From Candidatus Geocrenenecus arthurdayi (GTDB taxonomy: Archaea > Thermoproteota > Nitrososphaeria_A > Caldarchaeales > Wolframiiraptoraceae): a stretch of DNA of 64,000 bases. Below the pieces are notes generated by a model, which did not search any database, was not told where the DNA came from, and worked only from the letters and a program-made list of their open reading frames with translations. Every line of letters begins with the position of its first letter. Position 1 is the first letter of the stretch. Both the position numbers and the translations under genes were made by a program. Positions 33,254-56,738 of this stretch are shown here, piece after piece. The stretch lies in the NCBI GenBank assembly GCA_023539395.1, contig JAKCEX010000001.1, forward strand, positions 21,193-85,192. Reading direction: 5' to 3'.

Positions 33254-33343
33254 TGGGCCGGGTGGGATTCGAACCCACGTCCTCCGCCGTTTCCTTGACA
33301 ATCTCCTGTAAGGGCGGCGTCATAACCTCTAGACTACCGGCCC
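33254..33343 (-). tRNA. tRNA-Val(TAC) with an intron of about 17 nt at position 37/38.
   Basis: The acceptor is gggccgg/ccggccc. The anticodon loop reads cttaca|intron|c between the stem halves ccgcc/ggcgg. The T loop is ttcgaat. Confidence 0.65.
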
Positions 33344-33548: not shown

Positions 33549-33674
33549 TGCGGGGGGTGGGATTCGAACCCACGAACCCCTTCGGGATTCCCCTCTAGAT
33601 GCGTTCAGGGGTTCTCATCCAGTGTGAGGTGGATCCTGAGCCCTGCGCCTTTGACCTGGCTTGGCTACCCCCGC
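33549..33674 (-). tRNA. tRNA-Leu(CAG) with two putative introns (one in the anticodon loop, one in the variable-arm region).
   Basis: 126 nt in total. The acceptor is gcggggg/cccccgc, the D arm is GCC...GGC (Ser/Leu-like) and the anticodon stem is caggg/ccctg with loop ctCAGg. About 22 nt are inserted 3' of the anticodon. A further insert of about 17 nt precedes a cccgaaggg variable-arm hairpin. The exact intron boundaries are not resolved by eye. Confidence 0.5.
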
Positions 33675-33751: not shown

Positions 33752-34735
33752 TTATTCTTCGATTTCTTTCTTTACTCCTCCCTTCATTATAGAGAGGATT
33801 ATCGCTGCTCCTAGAACTGTGAATACTATTGATATTGATAGCCATACTGGTATAGTGATAAACTGTGTAACAAATATCTTAATCCCCAAGAATACTAGTA
33901 TTCCTGCTAGAGCTGGTCCAACATACTTAAATCTAAACATCGTGATTGCTATGAGGAAGTATAATGCTCTCAGCCCGAGGATTGCAGAAATGTTGGAAGT
34001 ATATGCTAGGAAGAAGTTCATCGTAATAGCTATTACGGCTGGGACAGAATCAAATGCAAATATTATATCGGAGGTTTCAATTGCTAGAAGTGCAAGTATA
34101 AGTGGGGTAAACAATAGTTTTCCATCTTGTTTTGAGCGAACGATAAACTTAGCACCATCATAATAGTCGGCCATAGGTAGGAATCTCTGAGCAAATTTTA
34201 CAACAGGGTTTCTCGTAGGATCTACTCTTACTTCTCCAGCTCTTAACAGTTTGTATCCAGAGTATATTAAGACTGCTCCGAAGATGTATATTGTCCAGTG
34301 GAATTGTTCTATTAGCCATAATCCACCAGCTATGAATGTAGCTCTGAGAATTATTGCTGTAAGTATTCCTACGTATAGTACGATTGGCTGTGCCCGCAGC
34401 GGGACTGAGAAGTAGCTGAAGATTACCGCGAAAACAAATAAGTTATCCATGCTTAAACATTTCTCAACGACAAATGCTGCATAATATAATCCTAAAGCTT
34501 CTAGCCCTTTTTCAGGACCTGTGAACCAGTATACAAATACCCCCCATGCAAGCCCAACAGCTATCCATAGAGCAGACCATGCTCCAGCCTCCTTATAAGT
34601 CATTGCATGCTTCCTTCTAACCCCTGCTAGCAGATCTATCGCTATGAAGACTATAATGACTGCATGGTATAGTTCCCAGAACCACATCGGTACTTGTATC
34701 TCGATATGGTGAGGAATAGTTGTAACTTCAACCAT
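33752..34735 (-). CDS. terC: TerC-family integral membrane protein.
   Basis: It has the EKCLSMDNLFVFA signature and about 8-9 TM helices. Confidence 0.7.
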   Translation of the reverse strand: MVEVTTIPHHIEIQVPMWFWELYHAVIIVFIAIDLLAGVRRKHAMTYKEAGAWSALWIAVGLAWGVFVYWFTGPEKGLEALGLYYAAFVVEKCLSMDNLFVFAVIFSYFSVPLRAQPIVLYVGILTAIILRATFIAGGLWLIEQFHWTIYIFGAVLIYSGYKLLRAGEVRVDPTRNPVVKFAQRFLPMADYYDGAKFIVRSKQDGKLLFTPLILALLAIETSDIIFAFDSVPAVIAITMNFFLAYTSNISAILGLRALYFLIAITMFRFKYVGPALAGILVFLGIKIFVTQFITIPVWLSISIVFTVLGAAIILSIMKGGVKKEIEE

Positions 34736-34774
34736 ACATACTTCAATGAAAAAAATATTCAGCGGATTAAAAAC

Positions 34775-34791
34775 GTTTTCATGGAAAAATT
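34775..34791 (-). promoter_or_regulatory. Conserved TTTyACATGGAAAA element abutting the TATA box of the terC promoter.
   Basis: The sequence gttttcatggaaaaatt sits directly 5' (on the coding strand) of a tttttaat TATA-like box about 27 nt before the terC ATG. This is a leaderless-type architecture. Confidence 0.45.
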
Positions 34792-34796
34792 GGTCT

Positions 34797-34874
34797 TGTC
34801 AACTTTTATTTAGGGTTTTTCTTTTTATTTCTATGGCTTGGTTTCTATTTTGATTTCTTATGCAATTATTTGAC
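34797..34874. repeat. Copy A of a duplicated intergenic element of about 77 nt.
   Basis: tgtcaacttttatttagggtttttctttttatttctatggcttggtttctattttgatttcttatgcaattatttgac. It lies in the divergent terC/CPBP intergenic region. Confidence 0.6.
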
Positions 34875-34951
34875 TAAATCTTCAATAGAAATATCTCGAC
34901 TTTCTATTTAGTTATTCACAGAGAGGATGTGTAGGAAAAATTATTATTTTC

Positions 34952-35722
34952 GTGATCCATCTTCTATTCGAATTGAGTCTAAGAGAAGAGAATAGATCAC
35001 TATTCTGGTTTTGGCTTACACCTATTCTAGTCATGCTAAGTATTAGGTTACCTTGGCTTCTAATCGCGGGACCGGAGAGATTCTTCATTCCACCTAGTGA
35101 GTTTGAGTTTTACGTTGGTCAATCGCTTAAATACTTCTCTATTTTATTTACGATGATATTGATCATCATTAGATTAGGAATAAGTTTGAAAGATATAGGT
35201 TTTGGCTCAGGTTTAAGGGTAATGTTAAGCGAGATCCTTACTGGCGGTGTTTTTGCATTATTCTATATCTTATTGACTTGGATTCTTTCGATATTCTTCA
35301 TCCAGTTTATGCCTGAGCAGGTTGAACAAGTAACATTCAGCATCCTGTATGGATACATTATACCCATGGATAAAGCTTTAGAGTTTGCGTACATGCTTAA
35401 CCCATGGGTTTACGCATTCTACATGACGATAATACCGAGCGTTATCGAAGAAACATATTTCAGAGGGTACTCTATAAACATCTTAAAGAGGATTTTTAAG
35501 AATCTATGGATTGTGAATCTCCTCCAAACAATTTTGTTTTCATTCCTCCACTGGTATAGAGGAATACTTGCAGGGATACTCCCAATGTTTCTCTTCGGAT
35601 TCCTCTTCGGCTTCGTAACGATAAGAAACGGCTACAGGCTCACATCAGCATTAACAGGACACCTAGCTACAAATGCTCTAAGCACATTCCTCTATCTGAG
35701 AGGCTTACAGACAGCCAGCTAG
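34952..35722 (+). CDS. CPBP-family intramembrane glutamic metalloprotease (CAAX protease-like).
   Basis: The EETYFRG and FSFLH motifs are present in a multi-TM protein. Confidence 0.7.
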   Translation: MIHLLFELSLREENRSLFWFWLTPILVMLSIRLPWLLIAGPERFFIPPSEFEFYVGQSLKYFSILFTMILIIIRLGISLKDIGFGSGLRVMLSEILTGGVFALFYILLTWILSIFFIQFMPEQVEQVTFSILYGYIIPMDKALEFAYMLNPWVYAFYMTIIPSVIEETYFRGYSINILKRIFKNLWIVNLLQTILFSFLHWYRGILAGILPMFLFGFLFGFVTIRNGYRLTSALTGHLATNALSTFLYLRGLQTAS

Positions 35723-35809
35723 CATCTCTCTACAAGATAAAATTTTTTCAATAATTCTTTGGTTGAAATACTCATACGTAAAAAAAAGAAGAGGAGGTGT
35801 TTTGTGGAT

Positions 35810-37174
35810 TTATTCAGCTAGTGGCGGTGTGAAGAATATTCCTCCCCAGAGTAGCCATACTAGGAATAGCGCGAAGACTATGTTTATACATTGAGCGATT
35901 ACATATGCGACGGCGGGTCTACCCCTGCCTATAGCCACTAAGTCTTTGAACCTGGTATCGAGCCCTATACCAACGAATGCCAATGGGAAGAAGACTATGG
36001 TTCTATATTTATCTACTGCTCCCTGCCAGAACTTTACGACGAAGTCGGATTTGGCTTTAGCTAAGGATAATCCTGTTGCTGCTGCAATCGATGAAATGAC
36101 GATTGTTACAAGTATGCTAGCGACTATGAATCCTAGAATGAACTTGGGGAATCTATACCATACCTCCATCGGACTGACACGTTCTTCTGGTTTCTTTTCC
36201 ACTCTGAATACCCAGTAGATAGCTATTATGAATGCTATGAAGCCTATCAAGATATTCTGAGCCATCTTAACGATTGCGGCTACGTCAAGTGCTCGTCCAC
36301 CGAGGAAACCTCCAGCTGCGACTACAGCTGGTGTCGTATCAATTGTTGCACCGATCCATGCTCCTCCAACGTGGAGCCAGTATTTCCCTAATGCTGGAGC
36401 TAGAGCTTTAACAAGGTAAGGTAATCCGATAAGCATTGGTATAGATGTTAATAAGACCATTGAGACCGTGTAGCTTATGTACTTTGGATTTCCTTTAACC
36501 GCTCCCCCGGCAGCTATCGCTGCTGACACTCCACAGATAGATACTCCTGAAGCCATTATGCTTGAGAATTCTCTGTCCAGTCCGAAGCCTCTACAGATAT
36601 AGTATGCAGCATACCATATTACTAGAACGTTGATCACTGCTTGGACTACTGCTAAGCCTCCAGCAACTACAAGGTCTGTAAAGAATATGCCGAGCCCTAA
36701 GATTACGAGACCGGTCTTTATAAAGAACTCTGTCCTTACTGCTGGCTTGAGCCATTTTGGAACACCGACCGTATTGCTGATTAATAGACCAACTATCAAA
36801 GCCCACAATGGGTATTCGAGCCCATAGGCTTTAGCAAAAGGCGTAGCACCGATCATTACCGCTATCCATGCTAGTATGAACACTACTATGTAGCCGGGAA
36901 TGTATTCCTTGACGAACCTTCCCTCGATAGCGCATACACCTATCATTGTTAGAATTAATGTAAAGATGAACACTGCTATCCATCCAAGCCCATGCTCCAC
37001 ATCTATGGCTAGCTTCTCGATTTTCGCATACCATCCCGTCCATGGCTGTAGGAATGGTTGCGCTGTCCACCCAGTTGCTGCTGCAGCTGCTAGACCGATT
37101 AGGATTATTATAAAGCCGACCCAGACCGCCCACCAATCTTCTTTCTTCCATAGACTAGACCAGTCTACAGGCAT
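35810..37174 (-). CDS. YeiH/UPF0324-family membrane protein (putative sulfate or anion exporter family).
   Basis: It matches YeiH across the ASGVSICGVSAAIAAGG region (E. coli AGSSICGAAA) and has about 10 TM helices. The ORF track begins with TTG at 37198, so the likely ATG is at 37174 (MPVDWSS). Confidence 0.6.
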   Translation of the reverse strand: MPVDWSSLWKKEDWWAVWVGFIIILIGLAAAAATGWTAQPFLQPWTGWYAKIEKLAIDVEHGLGWIAVFIFTLILTMIGVCAIEGRFVKEYIPGYIVVFILAWIAVMIGATPFAKAYGLEYPLWALIVGLLISNTVGVPKWLKPAVRTEFFIKTGLVILGLGIFFTDLVVAGGLAVVQAVINVLVIWYAAYYICRGFGLDREFSSIMASGVSICGVSAAIAAGGAVKGNPKYISYTVSMVLLTSIPMLIGLPYLVKALAPALGKYWLHVGGAWIGATIDTTPAVVAAGGFLGGRALDVAAIVKMAQNILIGFIAFIIAIYWVFRVEKKPEERVSPMEVWYRFPKFILGFIVASILVTIVISSIAAATGLSLAKAKSDFVVKFWQGAVDKYRTIVFFPLAFVGIGLDTRFKDLVAIGRGRPAVAYVIAQCINIVFALFLVWLLWGGIFFTPPLAE

Positions 37175-37213
37175 ATAGGTCAAAAGTAAGTAATTCAAGA
37201 AGGTTTATATCCT

Positions 37214-37229
37214 TTTACATGGAAAAAAT
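37214..37229 (-). promoter_or_regulatory. Conserved TTTyACATGGAAAA element abutting the TATA box of the yeiH-like promoter.
   Basis: The sequence ttttacatggaaaaaa is followed (on the coding strand) by atataaa and about 28 nt to the ATG at 37174. Confidence 0.45.
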
Positions 37230-37700
37230 GCTAACCTTAAAAACAAGTTTTAAAAGGTTTCCAAAAGCCCTAATGATTAACCAACCTAGACGGAAATCCA
37301 ACTCAAAAAATCAAATATCTGGTAGACCATGTAATACTGGCATGACTAGTGTAGAAAACACGAGCATAGTTCTTCCACATAGATCGCATTAAAGAACACG
37401 ATAGTAAGGGAGGGTGATGGTAATAGAAGAGTTGTCATAAGAAATATCCTTGGACACTACCTTGGAAAAGAGAGTAGCAAAGAGTATTTGAACAAATATC
37501 CAACGGCTCTAAGTGGATTGAGAGAATGCGGTCTGGTTAGGCTTAACTCTCCTAAGCACATTATTCATGATCTGATTAATGGCACACTACAAAAATTATC
37601 GTACCATTGGCTATAACTCCGACCTAATCATCCGATTACTCTTAATTCTATTTTTAGAAAGCTAATGTAATGTTTATATGATTAATAGCTTCATCTTGAA

Positions 37701-38777
37701 GTGAAGTCTATGAATATTTCTAAGGGTACCCTGCAGATAGAGGTTACATCTAGATGTAATGCTTGCTGTCTAATGTGTCCTAAATCATCTATGATTGATG
37801 ATTGGAGTAGTGGAGACTTAGCTCTAGAAGACTATCTTAAGCTTAGAGAATATTTCGAGAAGTTCAAGATCATCTGGCTTCAAGGTTGGGGTGAGCCTCT
37901 CCTATCTAGAGATATCTTCGAGATGGTTAGAGTAGCTTATAGAAATGATGGTATAGTTGGATTAACTACTAATGCTATGCTCCTGATAGAGTCAGTATCA
38001 AGGAAACTGATCGAAAACGGTATCAAGACTATAGCTGTATCTATCGCTGGGGCGAGAGAAGAAACCCATGAATCCATTAGAATAGGTACAAGCTTTAAAA
38101 AGATAATAGAGAACGTAGAATGTCTAGAGCGTTTAAGGAGGAGCATGAATGCTCGGGACTTGAGAATAATCTTTACATTCCTCAGAATGAAGCAGAATAT
38201 AAGAGAGCTTCCAGAAGTAGTTGAACTAGCATCAAGATTGAATGTAGATGAAGTGGTTGGAACAAATCTAGACTATATTCCGAGCAGAAAGCATTATGAG
38301 ATGAAGATCTTCTCTGAGGGGGAAGCTCCAAGAGAGTATACTGAGGTAGTTAGGGAGAGCGAAGAGAAAGCGAAGGAGCTTGGAATATCAATCTATAACT
38401 ACCCATTGGAGATGAGGGAGGTCGCAGTATGTTCTGAGAACCCTATAGAGAATATCTATGTATCACATGATGGTACAGTCTCACCGTGCGTCTACCTGAA
38501 CGTCCCTTTAAGAAAAAACATTATTCCAAGATACTTCAAGAACAAACAATACAATATTCCTAAAACAATATTCGGAAGCATAAGAGTAGAAAAGCTGGAA
38601 GAGATATACAATAAACAAGAATTCTCAAGATTCAGAAATATCTATAAGGAGAGGAGCGATTCTTGGAGAAGTTCAAGAGATCTTATTGGTAGAATACTTA
38701 GTTTTAGCGAGCTAAGCAGTGGCACTCTTCGGCTTCCCGAAGAATGCTATACTTGCTATAAAGCTTATGGTGTATAG
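37701..38777 (+). CDS. Radical SAM enzyme with a Cys-rich C-terminal extension (SPASM/twitch-like).
   Basis: The CxxxCxxC motif lies within TSRCNACCLMCP. The C-terminal cysteines (CSENP, SPCVYL, ECYTCYK) suggest an auxiliary Fe-S cluster. Confidence 0.7.
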   Translation: MKSMNISKGTLQIEVTSRCNACCLMCPKSSMIDDWSSGDLALEDYLKLREYFEKFKIIWLQGWGEPLLSRDIFEMVRVAYRNDGIVGLTTNAMLLIESVSRKLIENGIKTIAVSIAGAREETHESIRIGTSFKKIIENVECLERLRRSMNARDLRIIFTFLRMKQNIRELPEVVELASRLNVDEVVGTNLDYIPSRKHYEMKIFSEGEAPREYTEVVRESEEKAKELGISIYNYPLEMREVAVCSENPIENIYVSHDGTVSPCVYLNVPLRKNIIPRYFKNKQYNIPKTIFGSIRVEKLEEIYNKQEFSRFRNIYKERSDSWRSSRDLIGRILSFSELSSGTLRLPEECYTCYKAYGV

Positions 38778-38781
38778 CCAC

Positions 38782-38967
38782 CTACATCTCAGTTATTGTA
38801 ATCGCGCCTGAAGGGCAAACTGCCTCGCATGACCTACATCCAAGACACTGATCTCCATTTACTGGTACGGCTTTACCTTCTTGTAGCTCGAAGACGGATA
38901 CAGGGCAGATTGTAACACATTCACCGTCTCCAGTGCATTTCTCCCTGTCTACATTTACTATATACAT
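38782..38967 (-). CDS. fdx: 2x[4Fe-4S] ferredoxin.
   Basis: 61 aa with two CxxCxxCxxxCP motifs (CTGDGECVTICP and CLGCRSCEAVCP). Confidence 0.8.
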   Translation of the reverse strand: MYIVNVDREKCTGDGECVTICPVSVFELQEGKAVPVNGDQCLGCRSCEAVCPSGAITITEM

Positions 38968-39084
38968 TTACTTAACACCCAACTAATGATTGGTGCTCCA
39001 TAATTTAACTATAGTTTTTGAAAAAATATTTTTGTTGAATAAGAAAAAGTAAAAAATAGGAGGGAAATATTGTGTAGTGGACGC

Positions 39085-39297
39085 CTATTCTACCGATTCA
39101 GGTAGCTTGATTCTTGTTTCTCCTCCAAATGATACCCATTCTATTCTTCCTTCATTGACGAGCTCATTAACAGCTTTATCTACTACTTTCTTCTCAAGCT
39201 TTAATGCTTTAGCAATATCCCTGCTAGTGACAGACCTCTTTACCTTCTTTAAGTATTCAACTATCTGGTTTTTAATGTCTTCGGTTACCTCGGACAT
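39085..39297 (-). CDS. dsrD: DsrD-like small winged-helix protein.
   Basis: 70 aa. It sits immediately downstream of dsrB. The winged-helix-like region reads VEYLKKVKRSVTSRDIAKAL...VNELVNEGRIEWVSFGG, which is collinear with DsrD (about 75-80 aa). Confidence 0.55.
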   Translation of the reverse strand: MSEVTEDIKNQIVEYLKKVKRSVTSRDIAKALKLEKKVVDKAVNELVNEGRIEWVSFGGETRIKLPESVE

Positions 39298-39317
39298 TCC
39301 GCCTCATAAATTATATG

Positions 39318-40391
39318 CTATCTCCACTTGAAAAGCGTTGTGGTTCGGAAGGTTGGTACAGAGAATATGAAGTCGTCTATATGCTTATCCGTGAATGGTA
39401 TCCCTGTCAGTGTAAAGAATCTCTCCCATCCAATCCTCTTTATCCAATCTCCGATTCTTTCACCCTTCTTTGCATGCTTTATCCAAGTCTCAATTACTTT
39501 CTTAGCTGCTTGAACCGCCTCAGGCCATCTGGGCGGGTTATTTGGTAGATATGGTATGGCAAGCCTTGAGAATTCAGGGGGACCTCCAGCGACAGCGTTT
39601 CCTCCAACCCACATGGATAAGCAATCATACTTTGGATTATGTATGAACATTCCTGGGCATACAGTGTAGCAGTTCCCACAATACATACATCTATCTTCAT
39701 TAACTACGACGGACTTCTTCTCAGGCGCGGGTCTAATAGCTGCGGTTGGACAGCTTGCGACGAGTGTAGGTATCTCACATAGTCTACTGACTATATCGTC
39801 GTTAACTACGGGCGGCTTCCTATGCATTCCAACGAAGGCCAAGTCTGAGCAGTGTACAGCTCCACACATGTTTATGCAGCATGCAATAGCTATCTTAAGC
39901 TTGCCTGGTAAGTCATCTCTAACAAAGTATTCGTATAGCTCGTCATATAGTGCTTTAGCAAGACCAGGCGCATCTATTACAGCTGTATGGCAGTGCACCC
40001 ATCCCTGTGTATGGATTATAGCTTTTAGTGAACGGCCTGTACCTCCAACAGGCCAACCCCTATCCTTTAATTCCTTGAGAAGTGCGTCAAGCTTTTTCTT
40101 ATCTGTGACAATGAACTCTACATTATGTCTACTAGTAAACTTTACATAGCCGTCTGAATACTTGTCTGCAATATCGCATAGCTCTCTAACAAAGTATACG
40201 CTTACGATTTTAGGTATAGCAGCTCTAACCATGTATACTTCCTCACCATTCATTGAGACATGCTTTATCACGCCTGGAGCAACATATTCATGGTATCTCC
40301 ATTTACCATAATTCTTTAAGAGTACGGGATGTACCATCTCTTTGTAGTGTGGTGGACCAATATCTGTAATATACTTCTTCTCTGCCGCCAT
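39318..40391 (-). CDS. dsrB: Dissimilatory sulfite reductase beta subunit.
   Basis: 357 aa. The inserted ferredoxin domain is CMYCGNCYTVCP. The siroheme/Fe-S cysteine cluster is IACCINMCGAVHCSD. It lies 2 nt after dsrA. Confidence 0.8.
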   Translation of the reverse strand: MAAEKKYITDIGPPHYKEMVHPVLLKNYGKWRYHEYVAPGVIKHVSMNGEEVYMVRAAIPKIVSVYFVRELCDIADKYSDGYVKFTSRHNVEFIVTDKKKLDALLKELKDRGWPVGGTGRSLKAIIHTQGWVHCHTAVIDAPGLAKALYDELYEYFVRDDLPGKLKIAIACCINMCGAVHCSDLAFVGMHRKPPVVNDDIVSRLCEIPTLVASCPTAAIRPAPEKKSVVVNEDRCMYCGNCYTVCPGMFIHNPKYDCLSMWVGGNAVAGGPPEFSRLAIPYLPNNPPRWPEAVQAAKKVIETWIKHAKKGERIGDWIKRIGWERFFTLTGIPFTDKHIDDFIFSVPTFRTTTLFKWR

Positions 40392-40393
40392 GC

Positions 40394-41578
40394 TTACTTC
40401 ACCTCCTCCAATTCTTCAGGACTCCAGAAGTAGTATGGATTTGCTCTAGGAACGTAGACCATCTGTGGTACAGGCGGTAAGCCGACAGCCTTTAAGAAAT
40501 TCCTCATACCAAGTCTGTAGACTAATTCACCTATCCTCTCTCTAGTTCTTGCATTTTCATCCCACCAATCAAGTATCTTCCTTATCAGGTTCTTTAACTC
40601 AGTATATGGTTTCTCAGCTTTCATGAATGGTACTATAACCCATCCAAGGAATGCTCCCTGTAATATGGTAGCTTTTCCTCCTAGTAGAATTGTTACACCT
40701 CTGTCATCTCCAGGCAGGATCGCTTTCGGAAGGGCACCTAGACACTTCATGCATCTAGTGCAGTCTTCAGGGATGACTCTCAATTCTTTACCATCCCATT
40801 CAAGAGCCTGTGGTGGGCATCTAGCAGCTACAGCAGCAATATTTACACCCTGTTTTGCATATTCTCTAACAGCATCTTGGTCAATTTTTATTGAGTCTCT
40901 CCAAGTTCCTATTATTGCTAGGTCAGCTCTAGCCAATGCTGCTACACAATCGTTTGGGCAGCCTGAGATCTTAATCTTAAACTTGTATGGGAATCTAGGT
41001 CTATGAATCTCATCTTGAAACTCCATAGTTAATTCATGATAAATGTCTAGCGTATCTATACATGACCATTGGCAGAACGCTGGACCGCCGCAACAGCTTA
41101 AACTTCTGACATCGCTTCCTGAGCCTCCAAGATCGAAGCCTATGGATGTTAATTCTTCGAAACATGGTTGTAGAGCCGCTGTAGTTGCTCCAAGCAGTAT
41201 TATGTCTCCAGTGGAGCCGTGTAGGTTTATGAAGCCTGTTCCATACTTCTCCCAGACATCGCACAGTTTTCTCAGAGCTTTAGTTGAATAGAACCATCCA
41301 GCTGGTTGCGCTACTCTAAGTGTATGGACCTCAGGCGTAGGCATAACATCAGAAGGTAGATCACTATATCTCCCAATAACTCCCCCACCGTATCCTTTAA
41401 CTCCGACTATCCCTCCATGCTTCCAGTGGGTTACCTTCTCTTTATATGACCTCTCAAGCTGTAGTAGGACATTCTTTGCATATGGTTTTACCGCTGCCAT
41501 CCTCTTCATTTCCTTGATGAAGCTTGGCCAAGGACCCTTTTCCAGCTCATCTAGAAGAGGTGTCTCAGACATTTTCAA
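40394..41578 (-). CDS. dsrA: Dissimilatory sulfite reductase alpha subunit.
   Basis: 394 aa. The siroheme-[4Fe-4S] cysteine cluster is LSCCGGPAFCQWSC...CPNDC and the ferredoxin-like segment is CTRCMKC. Confidence 0.8.
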   Translation of the reverse strand: MKMSETPLLDELEKGPWPSFIKEMKRMAAVKPYAKNVLLQLERSYKEKVTHWKHGGIVGVKGYGGGVIGRYSDLPSDVMPTPEVHTLRVAQPAGWFYSTKALRKLCDVWEKYGTGFINLHGSTGDIILLGATTAALQPCFEELTSIGFDLGGSGSDVRSLSCCGGPAFCQWSCIDTLDIYHELTMEFQDEIHRPRFPYKFKIKISGCPNDCVAALARADLAIIGTWRDSIKIDQDAVREYAKQGVNIAAVAARCPPQALEWDGKELRVIPEDCTRCMKCLGALPKAILPGDDRGVTILLGGKATILQGAFLGWVIVPFMKAEKPYTELKNLIRKILDWWDENARTRERIGELVYRLGMRNFLKAVGLPPVPQMVYVPRANPYYFWSPEELEEVK

Positions 41579-41611
41579 CTCAGTATCTTATATTCCGCAG
41601 ACCTATATAAT

Positions 41612-41629
41612 ATTTCACATGGAAAATTT
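41612..41629 (-). promoter_or_regulatory. Conserved TTTyACATGGAAAA element abutting the TATA box of the dsrA promoter.
   Basis: The sequence atttcacatggaaaattt is followed (on the coding strand) by attatatagg and about 25 nt to the dsrA ATG. Confidence 0.45.
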
Positions 41630-41744
41630 CCTGCGATAATATAGTTGTTTATTATTGGGGGTTGAAAAGTTCAAATTAACGCTGTTATATTCATCGCTTA
41701 AGTTTAGACTACTTCATAATTCTTTCTAATATTGTCCCTGACAC

Positions 41745-43139
41745 TTAATAGACCAATGCGTTTGCTAGCACTTCACTTAAGCCTGAAACATTAATGTTTA
41801 GATTATAATAGCTAACCATGTCTAAGAATTGCCTCTTACAGTTTGCACATATTGTTATGAGGGTCGAGGCGGCTGTATCTTTTACTTGTTGCATCTTCAA
41901 CCTACCGTATGTCTTCATTCTAAAGTCTAGGAAATTATATTTACTCATTAATGCAAACCCTCCTCCACCACCACAGCAATAATTATACTCTCTATTGGGG
42001 TACATTTCTCTGAAATCTCTACATGAAGCAACTATAACTCTCCTCGGTTCATCATATATTCCCCCACATCTACCTATCTTGCATGAGTCATGGAAAGTTA
42101 CTGGCTCAGCATTCTTATGCTTATCAAGTTTTAGTTTACCTTCTCTCAAGAATTTGTCATATAGTTCAACTATGTGTATGACTTTAAATGGTCTCTCTTC
42201 AGCTGGTATAAGATCTTTCATAAGATGCCCCAGCACATCGTAAGCATGCCCACATTCCCCGATCACGACATATTCAGGTTTAAGTTTATTAATCGTCTCT
42301 AGATGGGCCCGTATAACTCGGAGCATATCTTTATCGCTGTAGAATAATCCATAGTTAACATTATCGAATACGCCTGTTCTAGGAGAATTGAAAGTCCAAT
42401 CTACATTGACGTAGTTCATTACTTCGACGATCCCTCTAATAGTATCTAGGAAGGATAAGTAGTCTCCAGCATTGTTTATGATGAGATACTTTGCTCCCAC
42501 TTTATCTACTGGGATCTCAATACTGACGTTTTTCCTATTCTCTTCGATTTCTCCTCTAACAAAGTCTAAGATATTCATCAAAGCCTCGTATGATATTTTC
42601 GGAGCACTGCCATACCTTAGCTGATTATCAACACCTTCTTCTTTCAATTCTTCTGGTATGATTCCAAGCTCAGCAAATATTTTCCTCATCTCTCTCATAA
42701 CTAACCCGTTGTCTAGACCGAATGGGCATGCCAAAACGCATCTCCTACATATTGTACAGCGGTACGCAGCTTCAGCCATCGCATTTATATCTTGCTCCGT
42801 GACCTCTTTCGCTCCTACAAGACTTCCAAAGACCTTCCCAGTTAATGTAAAGTACCTCTTATATATCTTCCTGAGCATATCAGCACGATAGACTGGGCTA
42901 TACAACTTATTTCTTCCACTACCAATGTACACTGGGCATGCTTCCGCACATGTACCACAGTGAGTACATGCTTCTAGAGCTAATCTTAGCGGTAGGAGGA
43001 ATGGCCAGTTATTCTTCTTATCTAACAATTCTCTAAATGCTTTTAGAAACTGTTCAGACTTAGGCTCAGTAGGATGTAGCTTACTATCTGAGAGACCTCT
43101 ATATTCATCAAAAACCTTGTATATTTGCTCAATCTTCAC
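41745..43139 (-). CDS. dsrK: DsrK/HdrD-like iron-sulfur protein with a CCG domain.
   Basis: 464 aa. The two ferredoxin motifs are CTHCGTCAEACP and CTICRRCVLACP. The C-terminal CCG domain reads YNYCCGGGGG. Confidence 0.7.
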   Translation of the reverse strand: MKIEQIYKVFDEYRGLSDSKLHPTEPKSEQFLKAFRELLDKKNNWPFLLPLRLALEACTHCGTCAEACPVYIGSGRNKLYSPVYRADMLRKIYKRYFTLTGKVFGSLVGAKEVTEQDINAMAEAAYRCTICRRCVLACPFGLDNGLVMREMRKIFAELGIIPEELKEEGVDNQLRYGSAPKISYEALMNILDFVRGEIEENRKNVSIEIPVDKVGAKYLIINNAGDYLSFLDTIRGIVEVMNYVNVDWTFNSPRTGVFDNVNYGLFYSDKDMLRVIRAHLETINKLKPEYVVIGECGHAYDVLGHLMKDLIPAEERPFKVIHIVELYDKFLREGKLKLDKHKNAEPVTFHDSCKIGRCGGIYDEPRRVIVASCRDFREMYPNREYNYCCGGGGGFALMSKYNFLDFRMKTYGRLKMQQVKDTAASTLITICANCKRQFLDMVSYYNLNINVSGLSEVLANALVY

Positions 43140-43145
43140 AGCATA

Positions 43146-43829
43146 TCACCCCTTGAAATGTCTCTGGTCGAGGATAATCTTTTGCCCATAGAATATTGCA
43201 ATTGGATGTATGAGTGTCTTGAACGGTAGATATATCATGTATATTTGGGCGAAGACGATATGTATTAAGAAGAGTGTGTTAACTGGAGGGGGGATAGGGT
43301 TTAGAGTTAGTATTCCCTGCACCCAAGTCCACAGATGCGTAGATTCAACGACCCTAAACATACGGATATATTGTCCTAGAGATAATGTTATTATTAGAAG
43401 AATTAGTGCGAAATAATCTGCAAAGTAGGAGTCAGCTCTTTTATCAACATATCTTCTGATTATGAAGCCTACTGAACCTATTGCAGCCAGCATGCCTGCA
43501 ATAGTGCCAACTTCATATTCATATGGAAGATGAGGAATGAAAATATATTTAGCGTGAAGCGTGAGACTTACAATTAGCCCTATATGGAACATCCATGCCA
43601 ACGTGAATATGAGTTTGTCGAATTTTCTAGGGCCAGGCAGAGAGAAGATTCTCGTTGCAATAGTAAATAAGATGTTTGCTAAGCTCTTCTTAGCTGGGAA
43701 TATAGCCCACATAATGGGTCTGGGCAGAAAGATCCACTTAAAGAAATTGTATATGACGGCTACGATGAAAACTACTAGTGTAATGTAGGGTAGATAAATA
43801 CCTATAAAAATCGTAAAGTATTCATCCAT
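43146..43829 (-). CDS. dsrM: DsrM/HdrE/NarI-like di-heme b membrane subunit.
   Basis: 227 aa with 5 predicted TM helices and conserved His residues in the helices. It lies 6 nt upstream of dsrK. Confidence 0.65.
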   Translation of the reverse strand: MDEYFTIFIGIYLPYITLVVFIVAVIYNFFKWIFLPRPIMWAIFPAKKSLANILFTIATRIFSLPGPRKFDKLIFTLAWMFHIGLIVSLTLHAKYIFIPHLPYEYEVGTIAGMLAAIGSVGFIIRRYVDKRADSYFADYFALILLIITLSLGQYIRMFRVVESTHLWTWVQGILTLNPIPPPVNTLFLIHIVFAQIYMIYLPFKTLIHPIAIFYGQKIILDQRHFKG

Positions 43830-44068: not shown

Positions 44069-44842
44069 CTAGCTAAAACCTGATACTAAGTCTGAGATGT
44101 ATTTCCTTAACTCAATATAGTATTCTCTAATATTATTAATTGAGGGACAATGGTCGACTTTCAATCCTAAATGTAACGCTTCACTTATCAATCTCTTGCT
44201 AATTACTGAGAGAAACACGTTCTTATGTTTTGTGAATAACTCATTCTCTCTAGAAATAATCTTAAGAATTTTCAGAGAAGTGACAACAATTATGTATCTC
44301 TTGTATTGATCTCTCCTTATAAATTCTACTATCTTCTTCACTGACGTATTTTTCTCGGAGAGAGAGTAGAGTTTCCAGAGATAGGACTGTTTGAAATAGT
44401 CTTTTATAAACTTCTCGAACTGGAAACTCACTTCGCTTGAACAATACACTACTAGGTTTGTCGAGTATGGAAGGTCTACTAAATACTTTATTAATCCCTC
44501 TGATGAGTGCTTTTCTGGATATTCTACCTTCAGTATACCTAGTTTTCTCAGTAGAGAGGCTGTTCCAGGTCCTATAGCTAGTGAATGCTTTTTAGCGTGC
44601 TTCCAAGCTTCTGGGAGAAGCTTCTTAACTATCTTAACTGCTGTCTTGCTTGTAAAAACGCTAACCTCAGGAGTGAAACCTAATGAAAAAATTCTACGAG
44701 CCGACTTAACCTCATCATAGTTAATCTTGACATTAATGACAGGGATTATCTTGAATTCAACATCTAGATCTCTCAAGTACTTGATTATATTCTTAGATGT
44801 ATCTCGTGTTCCAGGTAGTACAACTACTACTCTTCTATCCAT
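44069..44842 (-). CDS. hemD: Uroporphyrinogen-III synthase.
   Basis: 257 aa with the HEM4 two-lobe fold pattern. It overlaps the upstream SUMT gene by 16 nt. Confidence 0.6.
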   Translation of the reverse strand: MDRRVVVVLPGTRDTSKNIIKYLRDLDVEFKIIPVINVKINYDEVKSARRIFSLGFTPEVSVFTSKTAVKIVKKLLPEAWKHAKKHSLAIGPGTASLLRKLGILKVEYPEKHSSEGLIKYLVDLPYSTNLVVYCSSEVSFQFEKFIKDYFKQSYLWKLYSLSEKNTSVKKIVEFIRRDQYKRYIIVVTSLKILKIISRENELFTKHKNVFLSVISKRLISEALHLGLKVDHCPSINNIREYYIELRKYISDLVSGFS

Positions 44843-45567
44843 TTCAACTTCTCTCTCAATTCAACGACTTTCCCAAAAACTAGGACGGCTGGAGGCTTTA
44901 CATCATGTCTTCTAGCTATCTCGACAATATTCTCTAGACTGCCGGCGAAAACTCTTTGAGATGGAAGTGTAGCATTCTCAATTATAGCTACAGGAGTGGA
45001 GGCTGGCAGCCCGGAAGAAAGGGCTTCTCCAATTATCTTTTCCAGATTTGATACACCCATCAAGACTATGATGGTGTCTACAGAGGAGAAAATCTTCCTT
45101 AAGTATTCTACATCATCCCCATACCCTTCTCTCCTATGACCTGTAACTATCGCTACTGAAGATGAACGATCCCTATGTGTTACAGGTATGCCAGCATATG
45201 TTGGAGCAGCGAGAGCCGATGTGACCCCTGGAACTATCTCATACATTACTCCAGCAGACTTCAATGCTTCACATTCTTCCCCGCCTCTAGAGAAGAGCAT
45301 AGGGTCACCATTCTTCAATCTAACAACGACATCATACTGTCTTGCTTTCTCAATGAGCAGCTTATTTATCTCTTCCTGCTTCCAATTCTCACCTCTCTCT
45401 TTACCAACACATATCATCTCCTTCACCTTAACGGCATATCTAAGAATCTCAGGGTTAACAAGCCTATCGTAAACCACTATGTCTGCACTCTCTAATATTC
45501 TCAGAGCTTTCAAAGTAATAAGCTCAGGATCTCCAGGACCAGCACCAACAAGATACACTTTACCCAT
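44827..45567 (-). CDS. cobA: Uroporphyrinogen-III C-methyltransferase (SUMT).
   Basis: 246 aa. The N-terminus is GKVYLVGAGPGDPELITLKA, the class III tetrapyrrole methylase signature. Confidence 0.8.
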   Translation of the reverse strand: MGKVYLVGAGPGDPELITLKALRILESADIVVYDRLVNPEILRYAVKVKEMICVGKERGENWKQEEINKLLIEKARQYDVVVRLKNGDPMLFSRGGEECEALKSAGVMYEIVPGVTSALAAPTYAGIPVTHRDRSSSVAIVTGHRREGYGDDVEYLRKIFSSVDTIIVLMGVSNLEKIIGEALSSGLPASTPVAIIENATLPSQRVFAGSLENIVEIARRHDVKPPAVLVFGKVVELREKLKWIEE

Positions 45568-46341
45568 AAAGTCTCAATACATTCCTACACTCTGTAAATA
45601 TAAAATGTTAAGTGAGAAGCCATGTCAAAGCCTATTTTCAATAGGGAAACATTTATGTGCAAAGATTAGGACGAAATGTAAAGATGGAGTGAGATTCTAA
45701 TAAATACTTGGATTCTCAGTCCTACTGATTATAAGGTTAAAATATTTAGCAAATGCAGACTCTACATTTATTAAAGTTCCAAAGAGTATGACTAAGAAAA
45801 GCTGGAGCAATTTACCCCACGACTGAAAGTCGAGAGTCTTATGCGGTGATTTAATAAGTAAAAAGACATAAGCAGCCTAAACACTTGACATTAAAAGATA
45901 AGGCTTAGAGCTTGAGACAAGAGTATGGTTAATGGAAAAGATATTTGTCAGAATTGACAGAACACTGGAGCAGCTGGAGAAGAGGATATCGAGGGTAGAG
46001 GTATAGCAATAATTATTGGAGAGTTCATTGCTACTATAGTTACATCAATAATATTGATGTTGAAGCTTCTACTAGGGTGAGATAGATGACTACTACAGAT
46101 ATTAAACTAGATAGGAATATTCAGAGGGAGTTGGGCATTATTCTCCACAGCAAAAGTTAGAATTAGAATATATCAATAATTATTCACTTAAGATACGGAA
46201 TTTAGAGGCGAGCTTATTTTGAAGTATTTTTAGGAGATGCTCAGCTTCCAACTCTCCATACTAATGTCCTAGTTACCTACTATTTCTGGAAAATCTATTG
46301 AAAACTTGCATCTACTTTAGGAGGGATAGTTCATGCAGGCT

Positions 46342-46689
46342 CTATCTATAGCTAAAGATTCTAAGGTCATCTCTCACAATTATGCCGATAGTGTCTGCCT
46401 CAACAGCTATAGGATCTCCCTTCTCTCTTAGTCTCCTAAACTCGTCTATCCTTAAGGGTATGACCTCAACTCCAGGTGGTGGGTCTATGTGCTTAAGCCT
46501 TTCTATGGGATTGCCTAGAAAATAATCTGAGATTAACAATACGTCAACATCACTCCATACATTAAAATCGCCTCTTGCATAAGACCCGATGATAACCGCA
46601 GTGACGGTAAACTGCATACCCTTCACCCATCTTCTTACTGCTTCGATTACTTTCTCCTTCTGCTTCATTCTTTCCTTAATGACTTCCAT
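46342..46689 (-). CDS. Minimal nucleotidyltransferase (MNT), Pol-beta superfamily.
   Basis: 115 aa. The GS...D.D motif is GSYARGDFNVWSDVDVLLIS. Confidence 0.65.
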   Translation of the reverse strand: MEVIKERMKQKEKVIEAVRRWVKGMQFTVTAVIIGSYARGDFNVWSDVDVLLISDYFLGNPIERLKHIDPPPGVEVIPLRIDEFRRLREKGDPIAVEADTIGIIVRDDLRIFSYR

Positions 46690-47045
46690 TTCCCCTCAAC
46701 CCAGTCAATTATTATAGATGCATAGGAAACTGCTTGTTTAGAATCATTCAAGGTGTAGTAATCAGTTGGGATACCCTCACTCCAAGCATTCGGGTATCTT
46801 GTCGGTATATAGTATTTATCTAGAGTTTTAGCATGGTCTAAGATTTCGTCAGGGTTCAGCTCCCGTGGTATGTTATGGAGGAGCAAGGAAATGCTATGAC
46901 CCTTTGGGGTTAATCCTAGACCGTGTAGGAGAGCTTTTACAGCATATCCTGCTGCTTGATGAGCTTTAAAACACGCCCAATTATAATCACCTCTTCCTAA
47001 GTCGCCTTCAGCTGAAAGTAATGTCTTTTTGACATCTCTATCCAT
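46665..47045 (-). CDS. HEPN-domain protein.
   Basis: 126 aa with a classical archaeal HEPN pattern (ACFKAHQAAGYAVKALL ... YYIPTRYP). It overlaps the downstream MNT gene by 25 nt. Confidence 0.65.
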   Translation of the reverse strand: MDRDVKKTLLSAEGDLGRGDYNWACFKAHQAAGYAVKALLHGLGLTPKGHSISLLLHNIPRELNPDEILDHAKTLDKYYIPTRYPNAWSEGIPTDYYTLNDSKQAVSYASIIIDWVEGKWKSLRKE

Positions 47046-47123
47046 CTCTTATATTCCTCATCATCAATCAAAGATACCACAATTAGATAGCAGGAATAAT
47101 ATTTAAGCTGTTAATATATCAAG

Positions 47124-48059
47124 CTACCTAGATGAAATATCATAGATTCTTTTCCAAGCGTTTAAGATCTCTAGCCCACCTTTTTCTTTAAACAATCTTA
47201 CTGCATCTGTAGCTGCTTTCGATATGTCGGTATCCTTAGTGAATGTCTGTACGTGTACTTTCCTAGAATAGTCTGTTGATACAGTTGAGATGGTTATGTT
47301 TAATTCGCCTGAATCCATTTCTACGTATACACCGATAGGTGTCTTACATCCAACATTAAGTAGAGAGATAATACCACGCTCAATCATCGTTTCAATCCAA
47401 CTCTCATAATGATTTACATTCTCAAGGATTTTAATCAATTCATGGTTATCCTTCCTAGCTACAACGGCTAATGCTCCCTGCCCAGCGGGAGGGGTGAAAT
47501 CCTCGATGGGAAGCTTTTCATACCTTATGTTTCCACCGATCCTTTCTAGTCCTGCCTCTGCTAAAATCAAAGCGTCAACATCTCCTCTAAGCATCTTCTG
47601 GATTCTTGTCTCAACATTCCCCCGTATTGGAATTACTTCTAAGTCGCTTCTAACATATTTTATGAATGCTTCTCTTCTAAGACTGCTCGTACCAACCTTG
47701 CTAATCCTAGGTAAATCATCCAAGCTTAAACCATCTCTAGATATGAATACATCATAGGGGCTACGTCTCTCTGGTACAGCGGCTATAACGAGTTCACTAG
47801 GAAGCTTTGTTGGATAATCTTTCATACTATGAACAGCGAAGTCTATCTCTCCTCTAATCAATGCTTGGTCAATCTCCTTCTCGAATATGCCTTTCTCCGG
47901 GATCATGTAGAGTGGCGTCTCTAAATCTATGTCTCCTCTAGTCTTTATAATCTTAATTTCGTACTCTAACTCTGGGAATAGAGTTTTCAGCTTATCGATT
48001 ACTTCCATCGTTTGGATGAGCGAGAGCCTGCTACCTCTGGTCCCGACTCTAAGTCTCAT
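47124..48059 (-). CDS. hemC: Porphobilinogen deaminase (hydroxymethylbilane synthase).
   Basis: 311 aa. The N-terminus is RVGTRGSRLSL and the dipyrromethane cofactor Cys region is present. Confidence 0.85.
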   Translation of the reverse strand: MRLRVGTRGSRLSLIQTMEVIDKLKTLFPELEYEIKIIKTRGDIDLETPLYMIPEKGIFEKEIDQALIRGEIDFAVHSMKDYPTKLPSELVIAAVPERRSPYDVFISRDGLSLDDLPRISKVGTSSLRREAFIKYVRSDLEVIPIRGNVETRIQKMLRGDVDALILAEAGLERIGGNIRYEKLPIEDFTPPAGQGALAVVARKDNHELIKILENVNHYESWIETMIERGIISLLNVGCKTPIGVYVEMDSGELNITISTVSTDYSRKVHVQTFTKDTDISKAATDAVRLFKEKGGLEILNAWKRIYDISSR

Positions 48060-49329
48060 CTTCTATCTGAGAAAGAGAATTCTCGATAGCATTTATCGTT
48101 AATTCTACGTCCTCATCCGTATGGGCTGTGGAGAGAAAGCATGTTTCAAACTGGCTTGGAGGGATAAATACGTTATTCTTAAGCATGCCGTGGAAATACT
48201 TTTTAAATAATCTTATATCTGATTTCTTAACATCATCATAGCATGAAACCTCGCTATCGGTAAAGAATACTTGGAACATTGATTCAATATAATTCACAGT
48301 TATCTTTAGAGATCTATCAGATGCTACTTCCCTTATACTTTTACATATTTTTTCTACTTTCCACTTCATCTCAGAATATATTGCTGGGTTTTCTTTTATA
48401 TAACCTAATACGGCTAATGCTGCTTTAGTAGATATAGGGTTACCGCTATACGTTCCAGAGACATAAACTTTACCAGTAGGCGCAACATTCTTCATTATTT
48501 CCTCTCTTCCACCGAAAGCAGAGATGGGTAGACCACCACCTAACGCTTTACCGAGGGTTGTTAAATCGGCTTTTACACCATAGTATTGCTGTGCACCACC
48601 AGGAGAAAGCCTGAAACCTGTTACCACCTCGTCAAATATTAATACTGCTCCAGAATAGTCTGCCAACTCTCTAAGAGCTTTAAGAAAATCTATCTTTGGC
48701 TCAACCAACCCAAAATTTACTGCTACTGGCTCAACTATTATCGCTGCTAGATCATCCCTATTCTCTTTAACTATCTTCTCAGTCAACTCTACATCATTGA
48801 ATCTTGATATAAGCGTATGTTTAGCCACTTCTTCTAGTACACCGGAACTTGATGGTACGCCGAAAGTTAATGCTCCTGACCCAGCTTTAACTAGTAGAGA
48901 ATCGTGTGATCCATGGAAGCATCCTTCAAACTTGATTATCTTCCTCCTACCAGTGTATCCTCTAGCTAGTCTAACCGCATGCATTGTTGCTTCTAAACCG
49001 CTATTAGCAAGTCTAACCATCTCGATAGATGGGTAGAATTCTCTGATCTTCTCGGCTAACAATACTTCTTCTTCAGTCGGTGCACCATACAAGATGCCAT
49101 CTTCCACTATCTTCTTTAATCTCTCTACAAGCATACTAGGAGCATGCCCAAAGAATAATGCTCCATAACCCATAACATAGTCAATATACTCTCTACCATC
49201 TACGTCGTATATCCTCGAACCTTTACCCTTCCACACAAAAAATGGGTAAGGGTCATAAGCTCTTACAGGACTATTAACCCCTCCAGGAATAACTTTCCTA
49301 GCTCTTTCATACAATTCGAGAGAATTCAT
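48049..49329 (-). CDS. hemL: Glutamate-1-semialdehyde 2,1-aminomutase.
   Basis: 426 aa with the canonical GSA-AM motifs (GGVNSPVRA, the DEV.TGFR PLP region). It overlaps hemC by 11 nt. Confidence 0.85.
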   Translation of the reverse strand: MNSLELYERARKVIPGGVNSPVRAYDPYPFFVWKGKGSRIYDVDGREYIDYVMGYGALFFGHAPSMLVERLKKIVEDGILYGAPTEEEVLLAEKIREFYPSIEMVRLANSGLEATMHAVRLARGYTGRRKIIKFEGCFHGSHDSLLVKAGSGALTFGVPSSSGVLEEVAKHTLISRFNDVELTEKIVKENRDDLAAIIVEPVAVNFGLVEPKIDFLKALRELADYSGAVLIFDEVVTGFRLSPGGAQQYYGVKADLTTLGKALGGGLPISAFGGREEIMKNVAPTGKVYVSGTYSGNPISTKAALAVLGYIKENPAIYSEMKWKVEKICKSIREVASDRSLKITVNYIESMFQVFFTDSEVSCYDDVKKSDIRLFKKYFHGMLKNNVFIPPSQFETCFLSTAHTDEDVELTINAIENSLSQIEDET

Positions 49330-54465: not shown

Positions 54466-54483
54466 TCTTAATCAGCCTGACCC

Positions 54484-56355: not shown

Positions 56356-56371
56356 ATTTTTACATAAAAAG
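56356..56371 (+). promoter_or_regulatory. Degenerate variant of the same element upstream of dsrC.
   Basis: The sequence atttttacataaaaag (the GG of CATGG is missing) is followed by aattaaatac and about 35 nt to the dsrC ATG. Confidence 0.25.
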
Positions 56372-56417: not shown

Positions 56418-56738
56418 ATGCCGTACGTAGAGTTTAAGGGACAGAAGCTCGAAGTAGATGAGGATGGTTTTCTACAGGAACCTGAGAAATGGAGTCCAGA
56501 AGTTGCAGAATTCTTTGCTAAGCATTTTGAGGGAGTAGAGAAGCTTACTGATGAACATTGGAAAGTAATAAATTATCTTAGAGAATACTGGCAGAAATAT
56601 GGTGTAGCTCCACCTATAAGGATGCTTGTAAAGCAGACAGGGTTCTCCCTCCAGAAGATATATGAGCTCTTCCCTTCTGGACCTGCAAAGGGTGCTTGCA
56701 AGGTAGCCGGACTACCAAAGCCAACAGGCTGCGTCTAA
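56418..56738 (+). CDS. dsrC: DsrC (TusE/DsrC family) with both conserved C-terminal cysteines.
   Basis: 106 aa ending in ACKVAGLPKPTGCV. This is the DsrC C-terminal arm with CysB and the penultimate CysA 11 residues apart. Confidence 0.8.
   Translation: MPYVEFKGQKLEVDEDGFLQEPEKWSPEVAEFFAKHFEGVEKLTDEHWKVINYLREYWQKYGVAPPIRMLVKQTGFSLQKIYELFPSGPAKGACKVAGLPKPTGCV

Follow-up and report, generated by a model that had tools for sequence, protein, structure and literature searches.

A short promoter box recurs in the 64-kb stretch of the genome of Candidatus Geocrenenecus arthurdayi analysed here (contig JAKCEX010000001.1; hereafter the window, with a G+C content of about 39%). It is found, always in the same orientation on the coding strand and 5' of the B recognition element (BRE) and TATA box, at four promoters, namely those of the presumed operon dsrA-dsrB-dsrD-ferredoxin, of a yeiH-like gene, of terC/alx and, as a weaker variant, of dsrC. 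The existence of this box, its specificity, its fixed geometry and its evolutionary conservation are direct observations. The box is probably (with a likelihood of roughly 65%) the cis-regulatory site of a sequence-specific transcription factor, which would link the sulfite reductase with two membrane transporters. Indeed, it is read as the binding site of a regulator because it is specific, fixed in orientation, conserved at its G and C positions, arranged in arrays in some genomes and limited, in three lineages, to promoters that belong to a single functional neighbourhood.

On the coding strand, the element upstream of terC, of the yeiH-like gene and of dsrA reads ATTTTTCCATG(N)RAAA and lies 2-3 nt 5' of a TATA box. 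The promoter features of the window are listed below; minus-strand sites are written on that strand, whereas a preliminary description of this DNA gave the plus strand.

34790..34776, minus strand: terC/alx box ATTTTTCCATGAAAA, followed after the linker cg by the TATA-like TTTTTAAT
34773..34766, minus strand: terC TATA-like box TTTTTAAT, 30 nt before the ATG at 34735
37229..37213, minus strand: yeiH-like box ATTTTTTCCATGTAAAA, followed after the linker gg by the TATA box ATATAAA
37210..37204, minus strand: yeiH-like TATA box ATATAAA, 29 nt before the ATG at 37174
41629..41613, minus strand: dsrA box AAATTTTCCATGTGAAA, followed after the linker t by the TATA box ATTATATA
41611..41604, minus strand: dsrA TATA box ATTATATA, 31 nt before the ATG at 41572
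56356..56371, plus strand: dsrC variant box ATTTTTACATAAAAAG, directly followed by the TATA-like AATTAAATA at 56372-56380

The three minus-strand sites were recovered at the coordinates given in the preliminary description, upstream of terC, of the yeiH-like gene and of dsrA on the coding strand. Its consensus is one base too long for the terC copy (TTTTCATGGAAAA, not TTTTACATGGAAAA), and the 25-28 nt that it gave between the TATA-like box and the ATG are corrected here to 29-31 nt. Counted from the first T of TTTTCCATG, the ATG follows at 53 nt for terC, at 52 nt for the yeiH-like gene and at 54 nt for dsrA. A duplicated segment is not the source of the three sites, since their flanks are unrelated. 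The yeiH-like box ATTTTTTCCATGTAAAA is a near-palindrome, T5-C-CATG-T-A4. Since several window promoters devoid of the box show GAAA(A/G) immediately 5' of the TATA box, the 3' RAAA of the element is probably an ordinary BRE, and the specific part the 11-nt ATTTTTCCATG. In all orthologues of dsrA, yeiH and terC, the 3' end of the TATA box stands 29-32 nt from the ATG, a constancy that implies leaders of about 0-10 nt, so that these messengers may be leaderless or nearly so. A TGAG/CGAG motif is conserved at -11 of dsrA. The dsrC promoter has a 37-nt spacer containing AGGTGG between the TATA-like AATTAAATA and the ATG at 56418, and thus clearly a predicted longer leader with an AGGTG Shine-Dalgarno sequence.

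The box is over-represented at these positions. Indeed (i) TTTTCCATG occurs five times in the window for 0.56 expected, none of 100 shuffles reaching five, and its two surplus copies are both intragenic; (ii) the 13-mer, with at most one mismatch, matches at the terC, yeiH-like and dsrA loci only; (iii) a 15-nt matrix built exclusively from sites in other genomes, the window sites being excluded, ranks terC (21.6 bits), the yeiH-like gene (21.1 bits) and dsrA (17.7 bits) first to third in the window. Matches of at least 17 bits number three for 0.07 expected, and none of 300 Markov simulations gave three. All three lie 52-54 nt upstream of start codons, in a zone (50-56 nt upstream of a start codon) that accounts for about 0.4% of strand positions. 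With the same matrix, the dsrC site at 56356, described earlier as a degenerate copy, is the fourth match among approximately 128,000 window positions (13.2 bits) and is a real site that stands beside a TATA-like sequence; the next match scores 10.8 bits, in line with the earlier statement that the window holds no other clean copy.

The box is absent from the other approximately 35 promoters of the window, the inspection having covered every promoter preceded by a gap of 40 nt or more, including ribosomal-protein and siroheme promoters; a generic promoter feature was therefore rejected. Copies of TTTTCCAT were also set aside, namely one at 23047, which corresponds to the start codon ATGGAAAAG of a plus-strand gene, and those at 45939, 57779 and 61109, which are intragenic or lack the TATA geometry. 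In about 180 kb of aigarchaeal DNA, strong matches are almost confined to promoters of the dsrA, yeiH-like and terC types. An Rfam scan of the window returned tRNAs only, with no family at the box regions, and a literature search with the motif string returned primers only.

The gene order dsrMK, dsrAB, radical-SAM (opposite strand), yeiH-like, CAAX protease (opposite strand) and terC is kept in five relatives among the Caldarchaeales (Aigarchaeota) (L001-L005), and the box recurs upstream of the dsrA, yeiH-like and terC orthologues, some of the dsrA and terC copies being degenerate, so that the cross-species check proposed in the preliminary description supports its reading. The best-kept location is the yeiH-like promoter, where the canonical box is present in all six genomes, with TTTTTCCA invariant, the C, C and G positions conserved throughout and no degenerate copy. 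At terC, the canonical box is found in three of six genomes (identical to the window copy in L003, near-identical in L002) and is degenerate in L001, L004 and L005. At dsrA, it is found in the window, L003 and L073, that is in three of seven genomes, is degenerate (TTTTTCAATAA or TTTTCTAATAA) in L001, L002 and L004 and is almost lost in L005; the TATATA of this promoter is invariant in the seven genomes. Mean pairwise identities, calculated over six to seven Caldarchaeales genomes from sequences anchored on the TATA box, are the following.

Upstream flank: 0.34-0.38
Box: 0.57-0.80
BRE: 0.60-0.80
TATA: 0.69-0.86 (0.86 among terC orthologues)
TATA-to-ATG spacer: 0.35-0.42

As the box has kept this identity while flanks and spacers diverged, it appears to be under a constraint comparable to that of the core promoter (BRE and TATA). 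The dsrC variant GATTTTTAC is common to aigarchaeal genomes (L001 and L004) and keeps its distance from the TATA box. Both the yeiH and the terC sites of Aigarchaeota are near-palindromic, and L004 (the Aigarchaeota metagenome-assembled genome, or MAG, SKYB24) carries two tandem boxes 19 nt apart upstream of dsrA (9925-9958). In all lineages, the A of the box stands 15-18 nt from the start of the TATA box, always on the coding strand. As a separate observation, L004, where the terC box is degenerate, has a 908-aa open reading frame (ORF) between the CAAX protease gene and terC (16572-19298, plus strand), which is not at that place in the window.

The box is also found in Korarchaeia and Thermoprotei. 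A 12-nt matrix derived from the aigarchaeal sites alone was applied to the 21-kb locus of Methanodesulfokora (Korarchaeia; L006), where the top three of 42,324 positions are the promoters of dsrC (18.0 bits), of a ferredoxin encoded by a small gene just upstream of dsrA (15.2 bits) and of dsrA (13.6 bits). In all three, the box precedes a TATA box with the customary spacing. The match ranked fourth scores 10.5 bits. The canonical ATTTTTCCATG stands at dsrC, in the same place as the variant of the window, and four TTCCA(T) units with spacings of 9, 15 and 9 nt are aligned upstream of dsrC (4231-4269). In two Thermoprotei species (L070 and L081, the latter with the near-identical copies L090 and L091), the ferredoxin promoter bears ATTTTTCTATG/ATTTTTCTATA and a TATA box, and weaker copies are present at dsrA, dsrC and dsrM; the aigarchaeal matrix matches the ferredoxin and dsrM promoters of these four loci. 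Only the left half ATTTTTCCAT is conserved in L006, L070 and L081, and the right half is not; in loci keeping only the left half (L006, L081), direct TTCCA repeats are found instead of a dyad. The box was not detected at the dsr promoters of the archaeal loci of higher G+C content (L007, L008, L009 and L083-L087; Bathyarchaeia-like and others), nor in the bacterial control loci. Matrix matches in L008 and L009 were discarded since they coincide with the start codon of a gene whose protein product fuses winged helix-turn-helix (wHTH) and TusA-like domains (wHTH-TusA) and not with dsr promoters. A metagenome scan with the small ferredoxin returned the same Methanodesulfokora and Thermoprotei species, in addition to unrelated soil ferredoxins.

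Taken with the conservation footprint and the absence from some 35 other promoters, this recurrence in Korarchaeia and Thermoprotei lends support to the co-regulating transcription factor put forward in the preliminary description, the regulon itself staying a predicted one. By its over-representation, footprint and fixed geometry, the box fits an archaeal upstream activating sequence (UAS) or operator. Protein binding, its signal, the sign of regulation and the transcription start site (TSS) positions are inferred. A factor bound to the box would control the terminal sulfite reductase and both membrane transporters jointly, turning them on or off, and the trigger would be sulfite or another sulfur signal. 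The box would occupy positions of about -50 to -40, just outside the BRE. Characterised archaeal activators sit just 5' of the BRE, and because the box is placed where they bind, activation, via recruitment or stabilisation of the transcription factors TFB and TBP (TATA-binding protein), is the favoured sign. Site arrays, such as the TTCCA(T) repeats of L006 and the tandem pair of L004, are typical of protein binding. Repression by occlusion of the BRE is nearly as likely as activation, because the right half of the aigarchaeal near-palindromes reaches the BRE.

In its explicit form, repression would involve a dimeric factor on the imperfect palindrome T5-C-CATG-N-A4/5, whose right half covers the BRE and blocks TFB until a sulfite or sulfur signal releases the factor. 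This repressor operator is a possible though somewhat doubtful explanation. The aigarchaeal yeiH and terC sites and the dsrA site of L003 are near-palindromes centred on CATG or CATATG, with an A-run extending into the BRE; the BRE/TATA sequences look strong on their own (GAAAGAATATATA), so that an activator may be unnecessary; and in L006, L008 and L009 the wHTH-TusA genes have box-like sequences after the TATA box and before the start codon, a classical geometry of autorepression. However, the left half ATTTTTCCAT alone is conserved in L006, L070 and L081, the box never covers the TATA box or the TSS at dsr, yeiH and terC promoters, and its orientation is fixed, which a symmetric operator does not need.

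A factor-independent promoter element, either a DNA-bending T-tract or a contact read by a general factor or an alternative TFB/TBP paralogue, would make these promoters a promoter class. Indeed, the box varies least in its A-T5 run, whose distance to the TATA box is fixed at 15-18 nt, the degenerate dsrA sites of L001, L002 and L004 keep the T-run and lose CATG, and no dedicated regulator gene was found in Aigarchaeota. Such an element is nevertheless improbable, as the ribosomal-protein, siroheme and other window promoters lack the box, the C, C and G are conserved at yeiH in all genomes, and the L006 TTCCA repeats, at spacings of 9-15 nt, suggest a sequence-specific oligomeric binder. A transcribed element, with a TSS upstream of the box and a role at the RNA level as leader, small RNA target or terminator T-run, is very improbable: the T5-6 run might serve to end archaeal transcripts that read through from dsrK into dsrA, but the box is followed by a conserved BRE/TATA at canonical spacing with the ATG 29-32 nt further on, the TATA-ATG spacers are not conserved (identity 0.35-0.42), no Rfam family covers these regions, and the upstream neighbours of yeiH and terC are divergent, so that no terminator is needed there. 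A functionless origin (chance in an AT-rich genome, leftover of a duplicated promoter, or by-product of a small-ORF start ATGGAAAA on the reverse strand, whose ATG-GAA-AA opens a 57-aa ORF at 37219) has next to no likelihood, being opposed by the shuffle and Markov controls, by the unrelated flanks of the three sites, by the small size of the reverse-strand ORFs (6, 10 and 57 codons, not conserved) and by the conservation of the box across species and phyla.

Several points weigh against a co-regulated gene set governed by a dedicated factor. Degenerate copies of the dsrA and terC boxes occur in L001, L002, L004 and L005, for which reason some species may not co-regulate all three genes. The scan covered about 64 kb of the genome studied and, in its relatives, about 115 kb. 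The 3' A-run overlaps an apparently generic BRE, and the palindrome may thus be partly incidental. The TerC/Alx protein, of a family named for metal homeostasis, has no known role in sulfur metabolism. Furthermore, no transcription factor gene is present in the conserved aigarchaeal neighbourhood, DsrD is the only wHTH protein near the genes with the box, and no aigarchaeal homologue of wHTH-TusA was recovered by tblastn on all loci or by a profile search of 5.8 billion proteins.

With respect to the factor that would read the box, DsrD was rejected, since this protein has been reported to bind DNA non-specifically and to act as an allosteric activator of DsrAB (PMC8794893). Outside the Aigarchaeota, the genes for a wHTH-TusA protein of 169-183 aa and, next, for a KaiC-like ATPase stand beside the dsr cluster in L006, L081 (with L090 and L091), L008 and L009. 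The wHTH-TusA genes are located as follows.

L006, 2586-3095, minus strand
L081, 3378-3929, plus strand
L008, 2920-3441, minus strand
L009, 2-283, minus strand

The protein carries the wHTH at its N-terminus and the TusA-like domain, in which the motif GCEYPF is invariant, at its C-terminus. Its AlphaFold (AF2) model (pLDDT 84) matches the winged helices of MarR, ArsR and AbfR2, as well as E. coli TusA (3lvj_C; target TM-score of 0.82) and the TusA-like YeeD, and SqrR (6o8k) is among the fold matches. The family comprises six clusters in the profile search. The start codon of its gene coincides with a box-like sequence, or has one shortly upstream, in L006, L008 and L009; in L081 the resemblance is weak. 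This protein is a tentative candidate for the box reader in Korarchaeia and Thermoprotei, and a candidate persulfide-sensing regulator. L008 and L009 have the protein and no box at their dsr promoters, and no aigarchaeal homologue was recovered, so that this candidacy does not extend to the window. The window itself encodes a KaiC-family ATPase (PF06745, 1e-85) followed by a 163-aa protein with a weak HTH (6942-8139, minus strand), a pair that superficially parallels the wHTH-TusA/KaiC-like pair found elsewhere, the HTH proteins not being homologous. The 163-aa protein, which is the sole transcription factor candidate of the window, was rejected as unrelated to the wHTH-TusA family.

We know of no account of how archaea regulate dissimilatory sulfite reduction, and a literature search yielded no description of an archaeal dsr promoter motif; the element is a predicted archaeal regulon box. 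Archaeal upstream activator sites that abut the BRE are those of Ptr2 (Methanocaldococcus) and TFB-RF1 (Pyrococcus), the ArnR/EarA boxes of archaellum promoters and the GvpE UAS. Like them, the present element is a short conserved box 5' of the BRE/TATA, at fixed distance and orientation, in a few linked promoters; its sequence is unrelated to theirs, it is known from sequence and its activating role is predicted, and such a site is new for the lineages concerned (Caldarchaeales, Korarchaeia and Thermoprotei) and for dissimilatory sulfite reduction as a pathway. The SurR regulon of Thermococcales, governed by a wHTH factor of known signal that recognises GTTn3AAC and targets hydrogenases, NSR and MBS, is likewise an archaeal sulfur-energy regulon acting via a short motif near the BRE/TATA, but it differs in motif, lineage and target genes. 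The closest functional analogue is the enterobacterial YeiE-YeiH system of Salmonella (PMC12880088), in which a YeiH-family protein and sulfite reduction are under one sulfite-related control; in contrast to the archaeal promoters with their BRE/TATA and no LysR gene nearby, it relies on a bacterial LysR regulator and sigma-70 promoters, and the YeiH-like protein of the window is only a distant PF03601 member. Finally, sHdrR, SoxR and SqrR (PMC12423496) are bacterial ArsR-type wHTH repressors that sense sulfane sulfur by cysteine persulfidation and control sulfur-metabolism operons. They provide a conceptual model for the archaeal wHTH-TusA fusion beside dsr clusters, from which they differ in that the archaeal protein has a TusA-like domain joined to its wHTH, is restricted to a few archaeal lineages, was not found in Aigarchaeota and is only predicted to act as a sensor.

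Through the box, the YeiH-like protein and the TerC/Alx protein become candidate partners of DsrAB in function, and these two putative transporters would bear on the question of how sulfite enters and sulfide leaves sulfite respirers. Their transport substrates and direction are inferred. In Salmonella, YeiH was shown in a 2026 study to be the main determinant of resistance to sulfite stress, and YeiE, a sulfite-binding regulator, to control YeiH, which is co-regulated with sulfite reduction (PMC12880088); the link of YeiH is thus experimentally backed in bacteria. These Salmonella findings reinforce the sulfur link previously suggested for the YeiH-like gene. Moreover, in the Thermoprotei locus L081, the gene immediately upstream of dsrC is YeiH-like (PF03601; 4883-6343), an arrangement that independently ties this family to dsr. 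At the end of the dsr cluster of L081, a TauE/SafE-family gene (19449-20234) represents a further transporter-dsr linkage outside Aigarchaeota.

The interest of the box rests on its recurrence across phyla and on the transporters that it nominates. Being conserved, it could be used as a scan matrix, as a reporter or as oligonucleotide bait to trace the regulator, and the signal to which it responds, in mostly uncultured organisms. A bolder and doubtful proposal is that an old module, made of the box and its reader, is dedicated to dissimilatory sulfite reduction in Caldarchaeales, Korarchaeia and Thermoprotei, was inherited or moved between archaea with the dsr cluster, points to the YeiH-like and TerC/Alx proteins as sulfite or sulfide membrane transporters hitherto missing from archaeal sulfite respiration, and is read in Korarchaeia and Thermoprotei by wHTH-TusA as a persulfide-sensing transcription factor of new architecture. 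A box common to archaeal phyla bears on the origin of the aigarchaeal dsr genes, which is disputed between a transfer from Firmicutes (PMC6053391) and basal archaeal branches (PMC10504309); if true, a shared old module would argue against a simple recent transfer of dsrAB from a bacterium to Aigarchaeota.

The genes of the window were identified by Pfam and NCBIfam.

33752-34735, minus strand: terC/alx, 327 aa (PF03741, 4e-41; TIGR03718, 332 bits for a cut-off of 246.4)
34952-35722, plus strand: CAAX protease (Pfam/NCBIfam)
35810-37174, minus strand: YeiH-like membrane protein (PF03601, 9e-42, 143.5 bits for a cut-off of 24.5)
37701-38777, plus strand: radical-SAM/SPASM protein (Pfam/NCBIfam)
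38782..41572, minus strand: presumed operon dsrA-dsrB-dsrD-ferredoxin (Pfam, ORFs)
40394-41572, minus strand: dsrA (Pfam)
39318-40391, minus strand: dsrB (Pfam)
39085-39297, minus strand: dsrD, 70 aa (PF08679, 28 bits for a cut-off of 24.2)
38782-38967, minus strand: 2x[4Fe-4S] ferredoxin, 61 aa (Pfam)
39318-43829, minus strand: dsrB, dsrA, dsrK and dsrM (Pfam/NCBIfam)
44069-56287: siroheme-synthesis genes and a DsrN-like amidase (Pfam/NCBIfam)
56418..56738, plus strand: dsrC, first gene of a dsrC/Rieske-like/cytochrome b/dsrM-like/dsrK-like string extending to 61507 (Pfam)

The DsrA, DsrB, DsrC, DsrD and DsrMK domains of the window constitute a reductive dsr gene set, with synteny in L001-L005. 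DsrA shares 87-93% identity with its counterparts in Caldarchaeales (Aigarchaeota) MAGs, among them Candidatus Geocrenenecus, and about 72% with DsrA of Methanodesulfokora (Korarchaeia), of a Bathyarchaeia MAG and of a Thermoprotei MAG. The names given earlier to DsrA, DsrB, DsrC, TerC (PF03741) and the PF03601 protein were confirmed at this level, with two refinements. The TerC protein is an Alx-type member, above the TIGR03718 cut-off, for which the family name at NCBI is metal homeostasis. The YeiH-like protein reaches only 65 bits against NCBIfam TIGR00698, far under the cut-off of 232.6, and is most likely a distant member of the PF03601 superfamily and not an equivalog of E. coli YeiH. 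Its true start is the conserved ATG at 37174 and not the TTG at 37198, the ATGCC start being kept in all orthologues.

Some further observations concern the neighbouring genes. The dsrD and 61-aa ferredoxin genes of the window are small and easily overlooked under ORF-length cut-offs; Korarchaeia and Thermoprotei clusters lack dsrD and have instead a ferredoxin of about 75-80 aa upstream of dsrA, with its own box-bearing promoter. A radical-SAM/SPASM protein is encoded beside dsr genes in Aigarchaeota and Methanodesulfokora (L006 3189-4223, 37% identity), and its best NCBIfam matches, all below cut-off, are metalloenzyme or tungsten-cofactor maturases and AhbD. The gene order of the dsrC string is also found in L006 (4317-9227), L070 (282-2981) and L081 (6680-9371), that is in three lineages, which suggests a predicted bc-like quinol module coupled to DsrMK and DsrC. 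The string includes a small membrane protein after the Rieske-like and cytochrome b genes and ends, in the window and in L006, with dsrM-like and dsrK-like genes, which in the window (56418-61507 string) form a second DsrMK-like pair, apart from the dsrM and dsrK located upstream of dsrA.

Among the siroheme-synthesis genes, a HEPN/nucleotidyltransferase pair resembling a toxin-antitoxin system is inserted (46342-47045, minus strand), beside a 774-nt stretch (45568-46341) without any ORF of at least 70 aa. Lastly, three tRNA matches to Rfam are 90-126 nt long (3841-3944, 33254-33343 and 33549-33674, all on the minus strand); ARAGORN detects only one of them, without being able to type it, and these long tRNAs are presumably intron-containing archaeal tRNAs.

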